Shown here: positions 17,683 through 61,327 of the stretch, piece by piece
Position numbering within the stretch: the first letter of the stretch is position 1
How the letters are laid out: each line of letters begins with the position of its first letter
DNA from: a virus
Lineage: Duplodnaviria > Caudoviricetes
Length of the DNA stretch: 64,000 nucleotides
Strand: one strand, 5' to 3'
Virus record (IMG/VR): IMGVR_UViG_3300047469_000103
Coordinates: 96,001 to 160,000 of that record
The notes under the pieces: model-generated
Told to the model about the DNA's origin: nothing
Database searches by the model: none
What the model saw: the letters and a program-made list of their open reading frames with translations, nothing else
Position numbers and translations under genes: made by a program

Positions 17683-17930
17683 AGAAAGATAAGAGCGAAG
17701 AGAACCACGTTTCCGCGTTCTATTTTCGAAGTGAGGGAATCTGTATTCCTACCAACGAACGCGAAACCGATTAGACAAGCGATCAAACCAACGCCGCCAA
17801 TCAACAGGCTGTGCGATTTGAACGCCAAGTAAAACCATAACAGCAACGACAGGACAACAACGATTAGCGAATGAGGCCGTTTAATCGTTGCGGTGCTGGC
17901 CGGTAATGCGGTGCGTTTCATTGTACCCAT
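17664..17930 (-). CDS. Three-TM small membrane protein; first gene after promoter P18.0
   Basis: Hydrophobic segments; conserved leader box upstream. Confidence 0.8.
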   Translation of the reverse strand: MGTMKRTALPASTATIKRPHSLIVVVLSLLLWFYLAFKSHSLLIGGVGLIACLIGFAFVGRNTDSLTSKIERGNVVLFALIFLWMVAQ

Positions 17931-17934
17931 GACG

Positions 17935-17961
17935 AAACTTCCTTTGATCCGTGAGCGTTAG
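17935..17961 (-). promoter_or_regulatory. Conserved leader/RBS box (CTAACG-CTCACG-gatc-AAAGGAAGTTT)
   Basis: Same box at 37150, 58256, 63265. Confidence 0.8.
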
Positions 17962-17990
17962 AATTGCAGGCAGCCGGGGGCCGAAGACGC

Positions 17991-19636: not shown

Positions 19637-19655
19637 TCCGCTTAGAATGTGCGGA
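19637..19655 (-). promoter_or_regulatory. Intergenic hairpin TCCGC-ACATTCTAA-GCGGA
   Basis: Inverted repeat in spacer; shares CATTCTAA with the 52.5/56.3 kb elements. Confidence 0.45.
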
Positions 19656-36247: not shown

Positions 36248-36284
36248 TTGTCCTACAGGCAAGCGGAGCCGAAGCCCCGCCGCA
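36248..36284 (-). promoter_or_regulatory. UUCG hairpin followed by CCTGTAGGACAA box
   Basis: GCGGCGGGGC-TTCG-GCTCCGCTTGC then CCTGTAGGACAA; same 12-mer at 41932. Confidence 0.6.
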
Positions 36285-36590: not shown

Positions 36591-37144
36591 TTGCGGTTCG
36601 CCTCGTTCTTGTCCAGATTTGCAGCGTTGCGAATCAGCATATTACCGGAATGACCACGGACGGTTTCCATTTCGGTCTGGCGGTAAATGTAGATACACAG
36701 GTCGCAAAGCTTTTTACCGGTGATAAGCATGTGGCTGATATCCTCGACGAATTTATCACGCGTCAGGGTATGGAAACGATGTTCTGCTTCAGCCGGTTCA
36801 CTTTTCACGGCCAGCGTAACGCCGATGGTATCGAAAATCAGTTTCTCGAAATCCGCCGTTGTGATCGTCCAGCTATTCGGAATGATCGACGGTTTGTCGT
36901 CTACAGGTTTCGGTGCTTTTCCACCTTCCAGCCATTTGCCGGTTTCGATCAACTGTTCGATTCCGTCAAACCACGCATTGAGCTTTTTGTCTTCGTCGTC
37001 GAGCGACACTTCGACTTTGCCTTCTGCGAAAACGGTGCCGTGACAGCAAACGTTATTCAGCGCGATTGCAAAACGATGCGGCCCAACTTCTTTAATCAAC
37101 GCCGACAGAACGGATTCAGTTACAGCGTTCGCTTTAGTGCCCAT
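36587..37144 (-). CDS. Hypothetical protein (185 aa); first gene after P37.2
   Basis: Conserved leader box upstream. Confidence 0.85.
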   Translation of the reverse strand: MGTKANAVTESVLSALIKEVGPHRFAIALNNVCCHGTVFAEGKVEVSLDDEDKKLNAWFDGIEQLIETGKWLEGGKAPKPVDDKPSIIPNSWTITTADFEKLIFDTIGVTLAVKSEPAEAEHRFHTLTRDKFVEDISHMLITGKKLCDLCIYIYRQTEMETVRGHSGNMLIRNAANLDKNEANRK

Positions 37145-37149
37145 AATTC

Positions 37150-37170
37150 AAACTTCCTTTAAAGCGTGAG
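37150..37170 (-). promoter_or_regulatory. Conserved leader/RBS box (CTCACG-cttt-AAAGGAAGTTT)
   Basis: Seen directly. Confidence 0.8.
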
Positions 37171-37204
37171 TGTTGTAGTAGCGGCCAATCAAAGACCAGC
37201 CGCC

Positions 37205-41920: not shown

Positions 41921-41931
41921 AATTCTTTTCC

Positions 41932-41975
41932 TTGTCCTACAGGGAAAGGGCGAAGGAAAAATCCCCCGCCCCTTT
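41932..41975 (-). promoter_or_regulatory. GC hairpin followed by CCTGTAGGACAA box
   Basis: GGGGCGGGGGA-TTTT-TCCTTCGCCCT then CCTGTAGGACAA. Confidence 0.6.
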
Positions 41976-42899: not shown

Positions 42900-43955
42900 T
42901 TATACGAATCGACGGCGACGATAGCCGTAGCCACGTCTTCCGAACTTCTCGCTATATGCCTTTACAGTTAATCCCATGCAGGCCAACAGCAGGAACGTAC
43001 CGAGGATTTCCACCCAAAGCGGCGCGCTGTATTCGGATTCAAGGAAGTCGTATTGACGCAAATCTTCCCGTTCAAAATATGGCAGCGATAATTCAATCGC
43101 GCCAAGCAATTCACCAACGTCATAGGCGCCGAGCTTTCCAGCTTTTTCGGTCAGCACCATATTGAAGTCGGCCATTTCTTCGTTACGTTTCGTGTTGGTC
43201 GAACGGCTGAAGACTTCCGCTTTCTGCACCACGTTATCAGTGAGATAAAGTGTCAGAACAACATCGTTCTTTTTTCCGCCAGTCCACTTGTTCCGTAACG
43301 CATCGGAAAAGCCTACATCTTTCACCGCGTCCACAACGCAAACAATTACGTTCGCACCACGGAACGGCCCCCAGTCCCTTTGCGCAACTGCAAGTTTTCC
43401 AGAAAGTTCGTCGCTCGCCACAATTCGCGAAAGCCCACGATCCACTTGGAAGCCGTTGTAGATACTTGGATACTCAGGCAACCAACCGGTGTACTGATCT
43501 TGTTTATTCAGCATTACGGTTTGTTCACTAACGTACTGAAAATTCAGAAAACGTTTCGTGGTTGCGTAAGCATCGCCTAGCGCCGTGAACTTGTAGATTT
43601 CCGGCTCATTGGATTTCGAATACGTGTGTTCCGAATACGCATCGTCATCAATGTTGGAAATCACCGACCATTTCCACCGGGGAATTTGTCGGGTACAAGT
43701 TTTCGATTTGCCGTGAGAATCCGTGCCGCAACTGTACGTTTCCGTTTCAGGATCATACGTGCGTTTCTTCGCGACGACTGCGCCCGAAAGCAATTCTACA
43801 TCCGAGGCTTGAGCATACAGAGCGCCATAATAAAAACCCACGGCAACAATGATGCCCACAGCCCCGGCCAGAAGTGCTTCGATTGCATCACGTCGCCACG
43901 CAAAAAGCGCGACAGCAGCAACCATTGCGATTGCCGTATACATGATGATATCCAA
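42900..43955 (-). CDS. Membrane protein with periplasmic TPM-like domain
   Basis: Two N-terminal TMs, NVIVCV...LRNKWTGGKKNDVVL, C-terminal TM and basic tail. Confidence 0.7.
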   Translation of the reverse strand: MDIIMYTAIAMVAAVALFAWRRDAIEALLAGAVGIIVAVGFYYGALYAQASDVELLSGAVVAKKRTYDPETETYSCGTDSHGKSKTCTRQIPRWKWSVISNIDDDAYSEHTYSKSNEPEIYKFTALGDAYATTKRFLNFQYVSEQTVMLNKQDQYTGWLPEYPSIYNGFQVDRGLSRIVASDELSGKLAVAQRDWGPFRGANVIVCVVDAVKDVGFSDALRNKWTGGKKNDVVLTLYLTDNVVQKAEVFSRSTNTKRNEEMADFNMVLTEKAGKLGAYDVGELLGAIELSLPYFEREDLRQYDFLESEYSAPLWVEILGTFLLLACMGLTVKAYSEKFGRRGYGYRRRRFV

Positions 43956-52153: not shown

Positions 52154-52450
52154 TTATTTTCCGTCGTCGAAGGTTGTGGTCACGACCAGATAAGCGCCTT
52201 TCATTTCGGGAGATTTCGCTTTCGGTTTACCGTGAACGATTTCCCATTTGTGGTTTACTTCCGAAGCGGCGTCGGCTTCGAATTGCTTGGCGTATTTCTT
52301 TGCGTGGATTACATACAGCGCCTGCAATTGATCGTCGATGTTGAACTGCGTGTGGTACAGGGTTTCCGGTCGGCCTTCGTTGTCGAAGTTAACGCGGATT
52401 TCTGTGCTGGTGCGCATTTCGATAAAGCTTTGAACAGTTTGCATTGCCAT
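52154..52450 (-). CDS. Hypothetical protein (98 aa)
   Basis: GGAG RBS. Confidence 0.8.
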   Translation of the reverse strand: MAMQTVQSFIEMRTSTEIRVNFDNEGRPETLYHTQFNIDDQLQALYVIHAKKYAKQFEADAASEVNHKWEIVHGKPKAKSPEMKGAYLVVTTTFDDGK

Positions 52451-52475
52451 GAGTTTTTCTCCGGTCTGATTTCAC

Positions 52476-52503
52476 TCCAAAGCGCACTCGTGAGAATGCG
52501 CAG
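52476..52503 (-). repeat. Conserved intergenic hairpin, TCAC loop (copy 1 of 3)
   Basis: Minus strand CTGCGCATTC-TCAC-GAGTGCGCTTTGGA. Confidence 0.85.
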
Positions 52504-52508
52504 GAAAG

Positions 52509-52619
52509 TTAATCGTCTTCGCCCGTGTCTGGAATGTCACCGCTTTCGTCTTGTTCGCAGTCTTCGCATTCAACTTCTTCGCGGTCTATTCCGTGTGGAC
52601 ACCAAATCGAATCTTCCAT
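52509..52619 (-). CDS. Acidic Cys/His microprotein (36 aa), one CxHG..CxxC repeat; not in ORF track
   Basis: MEDSIWCPHGIDREEVECEDCEQDESGDIPDTGEDD; GAGGA RBS. Confidence 0.75.
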   Translation of the reverse strand: MEDSIWCPHGIDREEVECEDCEQDESGDIPDTGEDD

Positions 52620-52629
52620 CTTTTATTCC

Positions 52630-52968
52630 TCAGTCGTGGAAGTGTCGCCATTCAGCCGCTTCAAGTCCGCGCTGATAGGATTCGTCCAGCGCCGCGCCGC
52701 ACTCCATACATTCGTCGGCGGGCATGTCGTGCATGCAGTAATCGCCGCTGTCGCATTCGGCTTCTAAACGCGCCTCGTGTTCGTCGTCGCACGCGTCACA
52801 TTCACCAACTACGTGATGCTTGCAGGCCCGTGCAATTTCAGGCGGCGTGCAAATTTCGCAGTGCAGGTAATGCACACCATGTCCGCAAATATCGTCGCCC
52901 GGTTCCATGTCGCAAATGTCGCAGTTACCGCACGGTTCTTCGTTGGTGCATTTAGCAAATTCCATCAA
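52630..52968 (-). CDS. Cys/His-rich acidic repeat protein (metallothionein-like)
   Basis: Three CxH-x4-6-CxxC units plus an N-terminal C..CxxCxxC; GAGGA RBS. Confidence 0.8.
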   Translation of the reverse strand: MMEFAKCTNEEPCGNCDICDMEPGDDICGHGVHYLHCEICTPPEIARACKHHVVGECDACDDEHEARLEAECDSGDYCMHDMPADECMECGAALDESYQRGLEAAEWRHFHD

Positions 52969-53251
52969 CCTTTTCCTCGCTGCCTTTTCTCTTTTTCAAA
53001 ATGAAGTAATCGTGAAACATGATTGAGCTAATCATACCACCAGCAGCCGCGAAGCCCGAAACAAACGCGTACCAGTAATTGCCGTCGATGATGATTTTTG
53101 CGTAGCCACCAATCAACAGCAATTCCATGACGTTCATCACGTAAGACGTGCCCGCGATATGCCAGCGCAAATCATGATTCACATTCTTGTGCTGGAAACC
53201 TTTAACGAAAACCGAAATAAAGGTTCCAGCGAATGCGAGCGCGAAAATCAT
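52952..53251 (-). CDS. Three-TM membrane protein (GFQxKxV family), paralogue of 20448..20828
   Basis: VFVKGFQHKNV...VMNVMELL...GFAAAGGMISSIMFHD. Confidence 0.8.
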   Translation of the reverse strand: MIFALAFAGTFISVFVKGFQHKNVNHDLRWHIAGTSYVMNVMELLLIGGYAKIIIDGNYWYAFVSGFAAAGGMISSIMFHDYFILKKRKGSEEKVDGIC

Positions 53252-53460
53252 TTACCGCGAAGCTCGTTATAAACTTTGACGTACTCGTGGTGCAGAAGCA
53301 CAAGCTGATTTTGCAGGTCGTGTTCTTCTTCCGTCAGTTTATATTCGACGGCGTAAAAAGCTTTGCGACGATCAGACGCCACCTTCAGCGCTTCGATCAT
53401 TTCGTAAGCGAACCTTACGTTGCCTTCGGCTTGGCGCAAGGCCAGTTCATGCGGAGACAT
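53248..53460 (-). CDS. Small helical protein (70 aa)
   Basis: GAGGT RBS. Confidence 0.75.
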   Translation of the reverse strand: MSPHELALRQAEGNVRFAYEMIEALKVASDRRKAFYAVEYKLTEEEHDLQNQLVLLHHEYVKVYNELRGK

Positions 53461-53665
53461 TGCAACCTCTCAATTCCAGTTTGTTTGCGGCCTTCTTGAA
53501 CGACTTCACAGCGTTATTCAACGTGACGCGGTGCAAGTGTTGCGGTTCGACAAGTTCGTGACCTTTAGCGGCCTTGTAGGCGTGCTGGTACGACTCTTTT
53601 ACAGTATCGCGCACAGATTGCAGGGCGAAACCGTTGAAGCTCGAAACGTCGTTGGCAATGTTCAT
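53447..53665 (-). CDS. Hypothetical protein (72 aa)
   Basis: Start at ATGA junction 53665. Confidence 0.7.
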   Translation of the reverse strand: MNIANDVSSFNGFALQSVRDTVKESYQHAYKAAKGHELVEPQHLHRVTLNNAVKSFKKAANKLELRGCNVSA

Positions 53666-54408
53666 ACGGTGACTTCCTGAGTAGGTGCGGCGTGGACAAG
53701 GGAAACGGATTTGGTAGCGGTGATTTTGTAATCGTACCAACCGGGCAAATGTTTCATCACGCCCGGTTCTTTGTGACTGTCGAACATATGCGGCGTGCTG
53801 CTGATAAACAAACCAGAAGCTTTTTCGAATTCCGCGATAATGTGATCGTGCCAACGCTCAAGCATGCGCGCTTCTTTTTCGTTGGTTTCAACTTTGTCGC
53901 TGAAAACCGGCGATGCGTTGCCTTTGAATTCTTCAATCGACCGGCGCATGTGTTTCAGTTCGCGGATCAAATCGTAGGTTTCGTAAAGCTCAGTGAAATC
54001 CGGCGTGTCGAAGTGCCGTTTGATTTTGCTGTACGCCAGAAGGTTTTCACCGATGTTGCGATGCGTGACATTTACGTCGAGACGAAATAGGCCGTCGCCA
54101 TTGTCATTCATCTGGCCGTAATGTGCGATTGGATATTGGTTGTGCCACACGTGACCATTTTCAGCAGTCAGAACAAAACCGTCGTTTTTCTTTTCGTCGC
54201 TGGCGTTGTCCCACTCACCCGGAACTTTGTGATGCTCTTTCACGACCAGCTTTTGGAATTCCAGACGCGGGTAAATTTCTGCGCCTTCGTCGATTTGCTG
54301 GTGGCATTCGTCACGCCACGGAACAAAGCGCGAGAACGCCGGGTAAAACATATTCTTGCGAATGTGTGCGAACAGAGTCCAGATTTCTTCCCCGATTTCG
54401 TAGCGCAT
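53662..54408 (-). CDS. Conserved phage protein (248 aa)
   Basis: HKVPGEWD...DGFVL...W.NQYP..HYGQ. Confidence 0.8.
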   Translation of the reverse strand: MRYEIGEEIWTLFAHIRKNMFYPAFSRFVPWRDECHQQIDEGAEIYPRLEFQKLVVKEHHKVPGEWDNASDEKKNDGFVLTAENGHVWHNQYPIAHYGQMNDNGDGLFRLDVNVTHRNIGENLLAYSKIKRHFDTPDFTELYETYDLIRELKHMRRSIEEFKGNASPVFSDKVETNEKEARMLERWHDHIIAEFEKASGLFISSTPHMFDSHKEPGVMKHLPGWYDYKITATKSVSLVHAAPTQEVTV

Positions 54409-54710
54409 TATTTATTCCCTTTTTGAGTAGGTTGGTCTAGGCGTTCAACCGCAATTCGCATTGCGATGTTTTTCAATCGTTCTTGCATGAGTTCAACAAA
54501 CCGCATGTTGCCGTATGACGCTAAAACAATTCGGTTTACATCAGCGCCGGGAAATTCAGTAGCGGCGAGAAATCCGTACTGGTAATACACAATGGAGCCA
54601 TCGTTCTGTTCTTGGGAAACGCACGGAGCGAGAATGGCGTTTACCAAATCATTTGTCATCGAATCCAAATCAACGCCTAGTGCGTTTTCCAGCAGAGTGA
54701 GTGTCAGCAT
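54408..54710 (-). CDS. Hypothetical protein (100 aa)
   Basis: Start set at 54710 (GAGGT RBS); the track's TTG start lies in the hairpin element. Confidence 0.75.
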   Translation of the reverse strand: MLTLTLLENALGVDLDSMTNDLVNAILAPCVSQEQNDGSIVYYQYGFLAATEFPGADVNRIVLASYGNMRFVELMQERLKNIAMRIAVERLDQPTQKGNK

Positions 54711-54741
54711 TGCGTAAACCTCGTAGGGACGTTTCAGTAAT

Positions 54742-54769
54742 TCCAAAGCGCACTCTTTCGAATGCGCAG
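54742..54769 (-). repeat. Conserved intergenic hairpin, GAAA loop (copy 2 of 3)
   Basis: Minus strand CTGCGCATTC-GAAA-GAGTGCGCTTTGGA. Confidence 0.85.
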
Positions 54770-54782
54770 AAGAATTAAAGAA

Positions 54783-55238
54783 TCACACGCGTTTGCCGTT
54801 TTTGTCGAGGCGATAAATGCGCGTGGTTTGCAGCGGCGGTATGCCTTGCGTTTCGTTGAAGTGAAGTTCTGCGCAGGCCATTACAGCGAAAGCGTAGCAA
54901 CGCGGATACTGCCCAGCGCCACTGTGAGGCCCGTAGAGCGACGTAAAGCCAATCCCGTCGCCCATCGTAACCGTTACGCCTCTTTCGTGCCCTACGGCGC
55001 TCATGCGAAGTTTCAGCGCAAGCATAACCGTATGCGATTGGTCTTTGTACGGGTTGAACTCCATCGGACAACCGCCTGCCAGTTCAAAACCGGGCGGCGT
55101 GTAGAATGCCCGAATCGAATGATCGCTCATTCTTGAAAACGGGCCTTCCAGTTCGCACAGTTCCGCACACGCAATCAACAACGCCGAGGCGCCGGGTTCT
55201 TCTTTGATTACGATGTTGCACCAAACCTGCTTTTTCAT
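54783..55238 (-). CDS. Hypothetical protein, possibly NinX/DUF2591-like
   Basis: FNPYKD.....LALKL.M.V...YAFAVM.CA. Confidence 0.7.
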   Translation of the reverse strand: MKKQVWCNIVIKEEPGASALLIACAELCELEGPFSRMSDHSIRAFYTPPGFELAGGCPMEFNPYKDQSHTVMLALKLRMSAVGHERGVTVTMGDGIGFTSLYGPHSGAGQYPRCYAFAVMACAELHFNETQGIPPLQTTRIYRLDKNGKRV

Positions 55239-56206
55239 TTCTTCGCCTTTTGCAATTTGTCGTAGGCTGAAATCGACAGACCGGCGCGACGTGCTTCGTT
55301 CAATTGCGCGATACGCAATGTCAGGTGTTGCAAATCCTGCATTACGCCTTCGTGAATCTTTTCGTCAGCGACCGACCATTTCTTCGGATCAATTTTACCG
55401 ACCGGCTTTTTATTCGCGTCGGTGAAATCTTTCAGCGTCTGCACATGCTCAGGCAGTTTCGGTCTGCGGCCAGTCCGTGCGGCTTTTACTTTGCCGTCGT
55501 TAATGGTTTTCGCAACCTGTGCAACGATTGGCCCTTTCGGATTAATCGCTTCCGAAATCAGCGCCAAATCGTTCTGGCCTTTTACGCGTGGCGGGCGTTT
55601 CGGAATTGGCTTCGCGGCCAGTTGCGCTTTAGTCGGCTTGCCGGTTTTGATTTCCGGCGATTCCGCTGCAATTTGCGCGATGGTTTTACCGACCGTCTTT
55701 TCTTCGCGACCGTGCATTTGTTGAATGGCGCGATTCCAGCCGAAACCGTCAGCAGCTTTTTTGCCCAGCTTCGTCAGCGCGTAGCCAAACGATTTCTTCG
55801 CTTGTACGGTTACGTGTTGCATCAACAGCGCGTCGATAGAACCGTGGAAATGCTGCGAAACGATTTTTAGGCAAGTATCGAAATCGTCGCCGTTTACCTT
55901 CGCGGTAATTGCTTCGCGATCTTTCAGGCTTACACGGGAAGCTTTACCGGCCTGTACGTTTTCGGTTTCGATAGCCTTGAGCAATTTCGCTGCGGACGCG
56001 TAGCTTTTCACTACAGCGAAACGAGCAGGCGCTTTGCCCGGTGCCATCGACACAAACGCATGCGCGCCCGGTGCCATTGCCAGAAGCGAAATCGAAGCGA
56101 CTGGATTTTCTTTTTTGGTGTCGAGCAGGTTATAGATGGTCACAGCACCTTTTGCGAAAACGAGTTTGTGCTGGGGGAACATTACACGAGCGTCGGACTG
56201 TTTCAT
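55235..56206 (-). CDS. Basic Lys/Ala/Pro-rich protein (323 aa)
   Basis: AAGGAAG RBS. Confidence 0.85.
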   Translation of the reverse strand: MKQSDARVMFPQHKLVFAKGAVTIYNLLDTKKENPVASISLLAMAPGAHAFVSMAPGKAPARFAVVKSYASAAKLLKAIETENVQAGKASRVSLKDREAITAKVNGDDFDTCLKIVSQHFHGSIDALLMQHVTVQAKKSFGYALTKLGKKAADGFGWNRAIQQMHGREEKTVGKTIAQIAAESPEIKTGKPTKAQLAAKPIPKRPPRVKGQNDLALISEAINPKGPIVAQVAKTINDGKVKAARTGRRPKLPEHVQTLKDFTDANKKPVGKIDPKKWSVADEKIHEGVMQDLQHLTLRIAQLNEARRAGLSISAYDKLQKAKK

Positions 56207-56247
56207 TTTGTACTTCCTTTTTGATGAATTCGGATTTTACTCGGCTA

Positions 56248-56268
56248 CGCACTCGTTAGAATGCGCAG
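56248..56268 (-). repeat. Conserved intergenic hairpin, TAAC loop (copy 3 of 3)
   Basis: Minus strand CTGCGCATTC-TAAC-GAGTGCG. Confidence 0.85.
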
Positions 56269-56278
56269 CGATAGTGGG

Positions 56279-58039: not shown

Positions 58040-58063
58040 AAAAACCCGCAAGGGCGCGGGTTT
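58040..58063 (-). terminator. Intrinsic terminator
   Basis: AAACCCGC-GCCCTT-GCGGGTTTTT on minus strand; same stem as 57542. Confidence 0.8.
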
Positions 58064-58078
58064 ATTCGAAAGGGGATT

Positions 58079-58252
58079 TTATTTGCGTGGCGTAGTCACA
58101 AACGACTGCGCGATTTCTTCCAGTTGCTCAGCGCTAAGTTTCGGCGCGTCCGGGTAATACGTGTTCATTGCTGTTTCGTATTCCTCGCGGGTTATTAATC
58201 CGCTTGCTGCCAGTTCGTTGTATTCGTTTACCGGTAGCTCTTTAACGATCAT
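58079..58252 (-). CDS. Acidic microprotein (57 aa), first gene after P58.3; not in ORF track
   Basis: MIVKELPVNEYNELAASGLITREEYETAMNTYYPDAPKLSAEQLEEIAQSFVTTPRK; leader box upstream. Confidence 0.8.
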   Translation of the reverse strand: MIVKELPVNEYNELAASGLITREEYETAMNTYYPDAPKLSAEQLEEIAQSFVTTPRK

Positions 58253-58255
58253 CGC

Positions 58256-58276
58256 AAACTTCCTTTAATCCGTTAG
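58256..58276 (-). promoter_or_regulatory. Conserved leader/RBS box (CTAACG-gatt-AAAGGAAGTTT)
   Basis: Seen directly; leader also has hairpin CGGGCA-AGCCG-TGCCCG at 58288-58304. Confidence 0.8.
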
Positions 58277-58314
58277 GGTCGGAATCTCGGGCACGGCTTG
58301 CCCGTGTGACTTTC

Positions 58315-58342
58315 ATTGTACCTAAACGGCAAAAGGAATCAA
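58315..58342 (-). promoter_or_regulatory. sigma70-like promoter P58.3
   Basis: TTGATT-16 nt-TACAAT. Confidence 0.7.
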
Positions 58343-61066: not shown

Positions 61067-61327
61067 TTACTCCACAAACCACTCTTTGCCGTTCAACCAC
61101 ACGGCGCCTTTTTCTTCCAGCGTCTTTGCCATTTCGTCAGTAACGATGCAAAGTGTCGCTGGCCCTTCGACCGTGCTGTATTCAGCGTAAGAACCAGCGG
61201 CTTTAATTTCTGCGGCCTTCGCGTTGAACTGTTCTTTGGTTTTCGCCACCAAATAACCGTCGTGGCGATTTCCCCAACCAGCTTCATATTCACGGACGCT
61301 GTTGAAATACGCTACGTTCTGAGACAT
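61067..61327 (-). CDS. Conserved small phage protein (EYExGWG..DG motif)
   Basis: VREYEAGWGNRHDGYLV; AAGGA RBS. Confidence 0.8.
   Translation of the reverse strand: MSQNVAYFNSVREYEAGWGNRHDGYLVAKTKEQFNAKAAEIKAAGSYAEYSTVEGPATLCIVTDEMAKTLEEKGAVWLNGKEWFVE

Follow-up and report, generated by a model that had tools for sequence, protein, structure and literature searches.

The processing sites R0.3 to R1.3, at which RNase III acts on transcripts of phage T7, lie between early genes. They are repeated, related hairpins in the spacers of a long early transcript made by the host RNA polymerase, each placed after a stop codon and before a ribosome-binding site (RBS), and the same description applies to the element discussed here: a hairpin that occurs three times on the minus strand of a 64,000-nt stretch of a tailed phage (Caudoviricetes; IMG/VR record IMGVR_UViG_3300047469_000103, positions 96,001 to 160,000), to which we refer as the window. 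In T7 the sites form irregular helices, about 20 bp in length or longer, which are cut by a host enzyme with little sequence specificity, whereas the helix considered here has 9-11 bp and an invariant 3-bp step; RNase III is therefore unlikely to be its reader. Stem-loops are also repeated in T4-type phages, whose promoter-early stem-loop (PeSL) cassettes reportedly come with a sigma70 early promoter. Like our hairpins, they border small early genes peculiar to a lineage and do not keep their places from one relative to the next, but no sigma70 or late promoter was found at the hairpins of the window.

The nut boxB of phage lambda and the put site of phage HK022 (the latter compared by its description) are, like the hairpins of the window, cis-acting RNA hairpins of early phage operons that occur in few copies. 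The put RNA, about 70 nt long, has two stems with bulges and adjoins promoters (PMC9378689), and boxB is read through its loop; contrary to this, our hairpins have a free loop and are found deep within the operon, after terminators. In sequence, the closest likeness is to the repeats of type I-C CRISPR systems (Bacillus type) and to the viral solitary repeat units (SRUs) derived from such repeats, for example RacrIC1. There too, a hairpin with an irrelevant loop of 4-5 nt is followed by a single-stranded tail of 11-12 nt ending in GAAAY, and RacrIC1-like SRUs are solitary, intergenic and placed in phage just 3' of an open reading frame (ORF). However, our stem is 3 bp longer than that of the I-C repeats, the tail is displaced and carries substitutions or indels, and for the phage hairpins no matching array or host system is known.

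The hairpin family of Lu11/PaBG-like giant phages

The hairpin belongs to a lineage-wide family that is shared by the Lu11/PaBG-like giant phages and has an unusual conservation pattern. The window copies follow the pattern CTGCGCATTC-N4-GAGTGCG, with 14 fixed bases and a core of 7 bp. All three were verified on the minus strand where the preliminary description had placed them, exact on the 14 fixed bases, and a pattern search gave no other exact match in the window. With up to two mismatches allowed, the window holds 7 matches (dinucleotide shuffles had a mean of 0.86, and 0 of 100 reached 7), and four of these 7 are either reverse-strand readings of the copies themselves or a site with no relation to them.

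Copy 1 (52480..52503, minus strand; core 52500-52483) reads CTG-CGCATTC-TCAC-GAGTGCG-CTT and forms an 8-bp helix, GCGCAUUC/GAGUGCGC, with a U.G wobble; its 3' tail, TGGAGTGAAAT (52469..52479, minus strand), equals the 5' handle of type I-C CRISPR RNA (crRNA), TGGATTGAAAT, at 10 of 11 positions. Copy 2 (54746..54769, minus strand; core 54766-54749) reads CTG-CGCATTC-GAAA-GAGTGCG-CTT, continues past an internal loop into an outer helix TAATTC/GAATTA and carries the long form of the tail, TGGAATTACTGAAAC (54731..54745, minus strand). Copy 3 (56244..56269, minus strand; core 56265-56248) reads G-CTG-CGCATTC-TAAC-GAGTGCG-TAG-C, forms an 11-bp helix that includes a G.U and a U.G wobble, and is followed by the tail CGAGTAAAAT (56234..56243, minus strand). 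As had been described before, copies 1 and 2 are identical over 24 flanking and stem bases outside the loop (CTGCGCATTC and GAGTGCGCTTTGGA, the CTTTGGA tail included), the same U.G wobble is present in all three copies, each copy lies 3' of a stop codon, and a U-tract is absent from all of them. The distance from the end of the stop codon to the 7-bp core is 8-17 nt, the next ATG, which has a Shine-Dalgarno (SD) sequence, lies 32-41 nt downstream of each core, and the copies, all between ORFs, are spaced by 1.5-2.3 kb. A covariance model built from 16 exact-pattern copies gives them 33.9 (E 8e-6), 32.3 and 37.1 bits; the range is 32-37 bits on the sense strand vs 13-19 on the antisense strand. 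The RNA folding z values differ between the strands as well: -2.6, -3.5 and -3.9 in sense, and -1.1, -1.8 and +0.1 in antisense.

No cultured phage close at the DNA level to the window or to the small contigs was found. At the protein level, the product of 42900-43955 is 45-48% identical to proteins of the Pseudomonas giant phages Lu11, PaBG and HRDY3, and an all-against-all protein comparison shows that the window is collinear with Lu11 (279 to 228 kb, minus strand) and with G002, a 314-kb metagenomic phage of IMG/VR (136 to 205 kb). The counterpart region of Lu11 is a long leftward early unit with annotated sigma70-like promoters at its start, and protein identity among these phages is only about 25-60%. 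The exact pattern was found in 12 IMG/VR contigs, Lu11 included, and every site is intergenic. The preliminary description had proposed a covariance-model scan of the genome and its relatives, and the model, searched over whole genomes (about 1.3 Mb), indeed detects the family in five phages: three matches in the window (52.5-56.3 kb, minus strand), six in Lu11 (278.9, 277.4, 274.9, 272.6, 268.2 and 5.4 kb, all minus strand), five in G002 (130-139 kb), five in HRDY3 (271-285 kb) and two or three in PaBG (18.3 and 18.8 kb, with a weaker match at 56.2 kb). The expected restriction of the loops to GNRA or UMAC sequences was not seen. Beyond these copies the model detects little else in the same 1.3 Mb. 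Every copy of the family is co-oriented with its flanking genes and sits within a long early unit driven by sigma70-like promoters, with a stop codon 2-16 nt before it and an SD sequence with ATG 29-53 nt behind it; a genome has just 3-6 copies, within a span of 4-18 kb. A site at 19637-19655, previously regarded as a weaker relative, turned out to be another hairpin, with a stem of 4-5 bp and a 9-nt loop, and the model does not match it even at E<=10.

We also considered whether the family extends over phages in general. The pattern GCGCATTC-N4-GAGTGCGY is present in 99 IMG/VR stretches vs 25 and 20 for two perfect-stem controls, but one protein-coding motif accounts for about 16 of them, many others are generic hairpins, and about 35 independent groups are left after collapsing. 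A non-palindromic 8-bp stem would be expected to give about this number by chance; thus a pan-phage family is not established and we make no claim beyond the Lu11/PaBG lineage. The outer pairs of the wider set of hairpins from the relaxed scan covary, as is expected of any hairpin. Unrelated groups with a TGG(G)A tail (G004-like, L095-like and L004) may be true relatives. A high-copy host repetitive extragenic palindromic (REP) element was rejected as a candidate, with only 50 single-copy matches in 241 million metagenome records. Rfam gave no relevant match at E<=5 in 50-60 kb of the window and none above the gathering threshold in 14 related loci, and a literature search by sequence words returned only primers.

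Two side observations came from the same searches. In about 16 related viral contigs the 20-nt hairpin word lies within a region coding for ...FGRRI(H/Q)xSAPIEKARGRPG..., an AT-hook-like motif that inflates naive hairpin counts (L069, L078, L085, L086, L097, L117, L123, L128, L133, L135, L139, L147, L149 and L154). An AT-rich 19-kb viral contig (L113) carries AAGCGCATTC-N4-GAGTGCGCTT three times in successive spacers (10699, 11913 and 12693), each copy preceded by a stop codon and followed by a second, variable hairpin and then AGAGGG-ATG, which is the layout of the window in an unrelated phage.

Conservation of helix, loop and tail

The alignment of 19 short-loop copies from the five phages (window, Lu11, PaBG, HRDY3 and G002) has 93% of its cells paired and compensatory changes in 6 of 10 pairs. 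The lower stem has CTGCG/CGCAG, CTGCC/GGCAG, CTAGC/GCTAG, ATAGG/CCTAT, CTGCA/TGCAG and AAGGG/CCCTT among its variants, and the covariation score of 0.343 (0.137 when shuffled) was reached by none of 500 shuffles. These compensatory changes imply that the helix, 9-11 bp long in the family, is real and selected. Within it, a step of three adjacent pairs, C-G, A-U and U.G, does not change in any of the 19 copies, whereas the pairs on either side of it covary. Since the core is identical in phages with such diverged proteins, its sequence appears to be under purifying selection, which points to a sequence-specific reader. Moreover, the U.G and G.U pairs exist solely on the mRNA-sense strand. Together with the folding asymmetry and the co-orientation with genes, this indicates that the functional form is the sense strand, most simply mRNA.

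The loop behaves in the opposite way to what had been expected. The preliminary description had suggested that a GNRA- or UMAC-like loop shape is under selection and had named free variation in homologues as the observation that would speak against it, and this is what the 19 homologous copies show: the loops have 3, 4, 5 or 6 nt and no common sequence (TCAC, GAAA, TAAC, GATG, TAGC, TTTT, GCGA, TCTT, TAAG, CACG, TGGC, CAAC, GAG and AGCAAT are among them), and two further copies of Lu11 have loops of 10 and 22 nt. As the loops vary both in sequence and in length, reading of the loop is excluded, and so is a DNA operator for a dimeric protein with fixed half-site spacing; such an operator needs no complementarity, whereas here the spacing ranges over 3-22 nt, 6 of 10 pairs show compensatory changes and the wobbles are confined to one strand. 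The broader proposal, that the hairpin is an RNA element read by a protein or nuclease, gains from the sense-specific pairing, the covariation and the co-orientation, and loses its part on loop shape.

Most copies have a 3' tail resembling (U)GGAKUGAAAY, for example TGGAGTGAAAT, CTGGATGAAAC, CTGAGTGAAAC, CAGGATGAAAC, TGGGATTACAAC and TGGGATTGTACC. A TGAAAY-like word stands 10-11 nt after GAGTG in 9 copies, and a longer form of the tail, GGNTTGYACTGAAAC, is found in four.

Proposed punctuation of early mRNA and its alternatives

The position of the hairpin directly after a stop codon and shortly before the next RBS in a long early transcript suggests mRNA processing or stabilisation, comparable to the role of the RNase III sites in the T7 early operon. 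We tentatively favour, on what the sequences tell us, the reading that each hairpin is one copy of a cis-acting RNA module peculiar to the Lu11/PaBG-like giant phages, which would be read by a sequence-specific protein and would punctuate early mRNA. The module consists of the 9-11 bp helix and the single-stranded (U)GGAKUGAAAY-like 3' tail, placed between the cistrons of long early operons, with the loop irrelevant. We infer that a sequence-specific RNA-binding protein or endoribonuclease could recognise the wobble helix together with the tail, either while the early transcript is being made or once it is complete. By that recognition the polycistronic early mRNA would be punctuated: the upstream cistron would be left with a protective 3' hairpin cap and the downstream cistron, often a lineage-specific one, would gain a defined 5' end.

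Several observations weigh against this proposal. The tail is variable in several copies, such as those at 274.9 kb of Lu11 and PaBG copy 1. The positions of the copies are not orthologous between relatives, which also fits the boundary of a mobile cassette; for instance, the Lu11 and G002 copies 3' of the gp383 homologue have no counterpart after the homologue in the window at 61067-61327. No candidate reader protein was identified in our analysis, the genes neighbouring the hairpins belong to no recognisable families, a 10-bp helix is too short for RNase III, and Lu11, G002 and G004 encode no Cas5d- or Cas6-like RNase.

The main rival is that the hairpins are solitary mimics of type I-C repeats, acting as RNA anti-CRISPR decoys like Racr: carried in early mRNA, they would divert host Cas5c or Cascade subunits from crRNAs. 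We regard this explanation as serious, though unlikely on the whole, and do not class the element as an I-C repeat; the likeness is striking but unproven. It is best seen in copy 1, CGCATTC-TCAC-GAGTGCG-ctt-TGGAGTGAAAT, when set beside the repeat of B. halodurans, GTCGCACTCTACACGAGTGCGTGGATTGAAAT, that is CGCACTC-TACAC-GAGTGCG-TGGATTGAAAT (PMC5135824): the stem agrees at 13 of 14 positions and the tail at 10 of 11, and 3 inserted nt on either side make our stem longer. The wobble arises from a C-to-T change, which is a minor variant in real Bacillus I-C arrays and also occurs in solitary form in Prevotella, Bacteroides and Paenibacillus genomes. Among 45 same-stem hairpins from many phage contigs, likeness of the tail to TGGATTGAAAY is at least 8/11 in 6 (0.8 expected) and at least 7/11 in 17 (5.0 expected), neither being reached in 1000 shuffles, and TGG stands within 5 nt of the stem end 12 times vs 1.4 expected. 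It further speaks for a mimic that Cas5c ignores the loop (PMC8524198), that I-C repeats of 37 nt with stems of about 10 bp exist, and that RacrIC1, a proven case, lies downstream of a gene on the same transcript (PMC10651486).

Other observations speak against membership of the I-C repeats. A covariance model of the I-C repeat aligns the stem-loop alone, with 13-17 bits and E of about 1-8; on the window copies it gives 17.3, 16.5 and <13 bits (E>=1) and aligns model positions 3-22 only. In the I-C layout a 7-bp stem with a loop of 4-5 nt is directly followed by the 11-nt UGGAUUGAAAY handle. Our stem agrees with this at 13 of 14 positions and our loop has 4 nt; the tail of copy 1 agrees at 10 of 11 positions but begins 3 nt later, and the tails of copies 2 and 3 agree at 7 of 11. 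Membership of the I-C repeats or SRUs is judged by sequence and structure match to known repeats, which SRUFinder sets at a BLAST bit score >=41.1, and the hairpins lack such a match; like SRUs, they are solitary and intergenic, and the mobile element that carries them has no cas genes. The SRUFinder tables searched do not contain Lu11 or the other contigs, and neither IMG/VR nor 241 million metagenome records yielded a CRISPR array built from this repeat. The missing Cas5d and Cas6 of Lu11, G002 and G004 also count against membership. Cas5c reads the base of the stem and the following U22-G23-G24 (PMC8524198), and in our family it is the middle of the stem that is invariant while its base is free to covary, which is the opposite. 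The I-C repeat documented from X. citri, GTCGCGCCCTCACGGGCGCGTGGATTGAAAC (PMC9504256), is of the GCGCCC-stem type. The PaBG copies are unlike this type. The repeat of P. aeruginosa belongs to it too, and P. putida, the host species of Lu11, is not known to carry CRISPR often, which would also argue against a mimic.

Real I-C repeats were met in several of the sequences searched. Four independent arrays, in the Bacillus genomes L065, L066 and L067 and in the 206-kb viral contig L252, show an occasional C-to-T change in the 5' arm (GTCGCATTC...), giving the same U.G pair. Solitary canonical repeats, GTCGCATTC-N5-GAGTGCGTGGATTGAAAY, with no second repeat within 8 kb, occur in L062 and L063 (Prevotella/Bacteroides metagenome-assembled genomes) and in L064 (Paenibacillus cymbidii), and they are candidates for solitary repeat units or regulatory crRNA-like loci.

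An intermediate possibility joins both explanations. The Lu11/PaBG-like giant phages could have a punctuation system of their own for early mRNA, in which a sequence-specific endoribonuclease or RNA-binding protein recognises the invariant C-A-U/G-U-G wobble helix and the GGAKUGAAAY tail in a way comparable to that of Cas5c on a type I-C repeat, and the module would have common ancestry with type I-C/I-G CRISPR repeats or serve in addition as a decoy for them; we consider this rather doubtful.

One could argue that no specific reader is needed, and that the hairpins are leaky attenuators or terminators, or blocks to 3' exonucleases after stop codons, which owe their identity to recent duplication or gene conversion. 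Indeed, a place directly 3' of stop codons is typical of terminators and REP-like stabilisers, the same 8-bp stem is followed by a T-run in other phages (L073, L088 and L124), and a given 8-bp stem is expected by chance in tens of phage hairpins, as the 25 and 20 stretches of the perfect-stem controls illustrate. However, an intrinsic terminator is a G+C-rich hairpin followed by a U-tract, and the window copies, which have no T-run and continue into CTTTGGAG, CTTTGGAA and TAGCCGAG, are not terminator-like and are omitted by a terminator scan. Duplication within a genome cannot explain a C-G/A-U/U.G step that is invariant across five phages while the neighbouring pairs covary. Additionally, the U.G wobble is kept in every one of the 19 copies although stability does not need it, and the conserved tail is left unexplained. 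We consider such a plain hairpin improbable.

It is more improbable that the element acts as DNA, either as a promoter for a phage-modified RNA polymerase (of a middle class, with TGAAAC resembling a -10 box) or as a recombination joint for the shuffling of cassettes, like PeSL. The fixed distance of 10-11 nt between GAGTG and TGAAAY in 9 copies would suit a promoter, no sigma70-like promoter was found between 58.3 kb and the window hairpins, and one Lu11 copy adjoins an annotated middle/late promoter. The non-orthologous positions, and window copies directly before genes without Lu11 or G002 homologues, would suit a joint. Nevertheless, compensatory changes and sense-specific wobbles are not expected for recognition of double-stranded DNA, the arms are 3-22 nt apart, the tail is unlike AAAACTGTAAATA, the late promoter of these phages, and the 3-6 copies of a genome occupy one region. 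A hairpin promoter of the N4 type was rejected, as the hairpin is better on the coding strand, its wobbles turn into A.C mismatches when the template strand is folded, and an ORF for a giant virion RNA polymerase is missing from the window. Finally, the loop-shape reading in its boxB-like form, with an N-like antiterminator recognising a GNRA-like fold of the loop, is scarcely credible: copy 2 does have a GAAA loop and the hairpins do lie within a long operon downstream of two terminators, but the homologous loops are free in sequence and length, refuting the conserved GNRA-like loop by which N peptide reads boxB, the twin terminators precede the hairpins rather than follow them, and a conserved boxA-like partner is absent.

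Genomic setting and significance

About 139 small genes follow one another without a break in the window, all of them on the minus strand, and each hairpin fills one of the few spacers between them. The nearest upstream sigma70-like promoter, TTGATT-16-TACAAT (58315..58342, minus strand), belongs to the early transcription unit that holds the hairpins. Directly 3' of copy 1 lies a gene for 98 amino acids (aa) without Lu11 or G002 homologue and without Pfam or PHROG match (52154..52450, minus strand), directly 3' of copy 2 a 100-aa gene without Lu11 or G002 homologue (54408..54710, minus strand), and directly 3' of copy 3 a 323-aa gene without homologue in cultured phages, Lu11 or G002 (55235..56206, minus strand). 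The next genes, of 151 aa after copy 3 and of 190 aa after copy 1, likewise have no Lu11 or G002 homologues, and the 190-aa protein matches a PHROG family of unknown function. The window hairpins therefore mark the upstream edge of lineage-specific genes, which fits a regulatory module acquired with these genes or a recombination joint.

Other features of the surrounding region deserve a mention. Just upstream of the hairpin region, at 58040 and 57542 on the minus strand, there are two classical terminators 500 nt apart, which share a AAACCCGC...GCGGGTTTT stem. Just upstream of copy 1 (52509-52968, minus strand), a Cys/His-rich 111-aa protein and its 36-aa sister with one repeat are encoded, with no Pfam or PHROG match. 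A leader cassette, C(T/A)(A/C)ACG..T.AAAGGAAGTTT, is shared by minus-strand 58250-58290, 37142-37180 and 17928-17965, directly before three start codons and each time after a long GC-rich hairpin. The preliminary description had linked the hairpins to the promoter leaders through the word CT(A/C)ACG, but this word occurs 29 times on the minus strand vs about 31 expected, so its recurrence carries no information. Another word, CCTGTAGGAC, stands after strong terminator-like hairpins, with a start codon 15-20 nt further on (minus strand, 41930-41945 and 36250-36262; also in L011, L201, L207 and L213), and in unrelated phages of about 40 kb, which form one group, hairpins of this kind have CCTGTAGGCCAAT about 5 nt upstream; the two may represent another promoter-like word. 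The sequence AAAACTGTAAATA, annotated as 'putative middle/late promoter' in the Lu11 record, looks like a T4-type late promoter (TATAAATA-like). Lu11 has about 35 occurrences of it, G002 has 11 and the window has two (minus strand, 9279 and 1465), which marks the genes of the window as mostly non-late.

Almost nothing is known about gene expression in the Lu11/PaBG giant Pseudomonas phages. The hairpins define a conserved and testable cis-element of their early operons, the invariant three-pair step with the U.G wobble is a clear target for mutation, and cultures exist of two phages of this group, Lu11 and PaBG. Should a phage or host protein read the element, it would offer a new handle on early mRNA processing. 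Should it instead mimic a CRISPR repeat, giant lytic phages would join the carriers of RNA anti-CRISPRs, and these RNAs would include forms whose divergence puts them beyond the present searches by repeat similarity.

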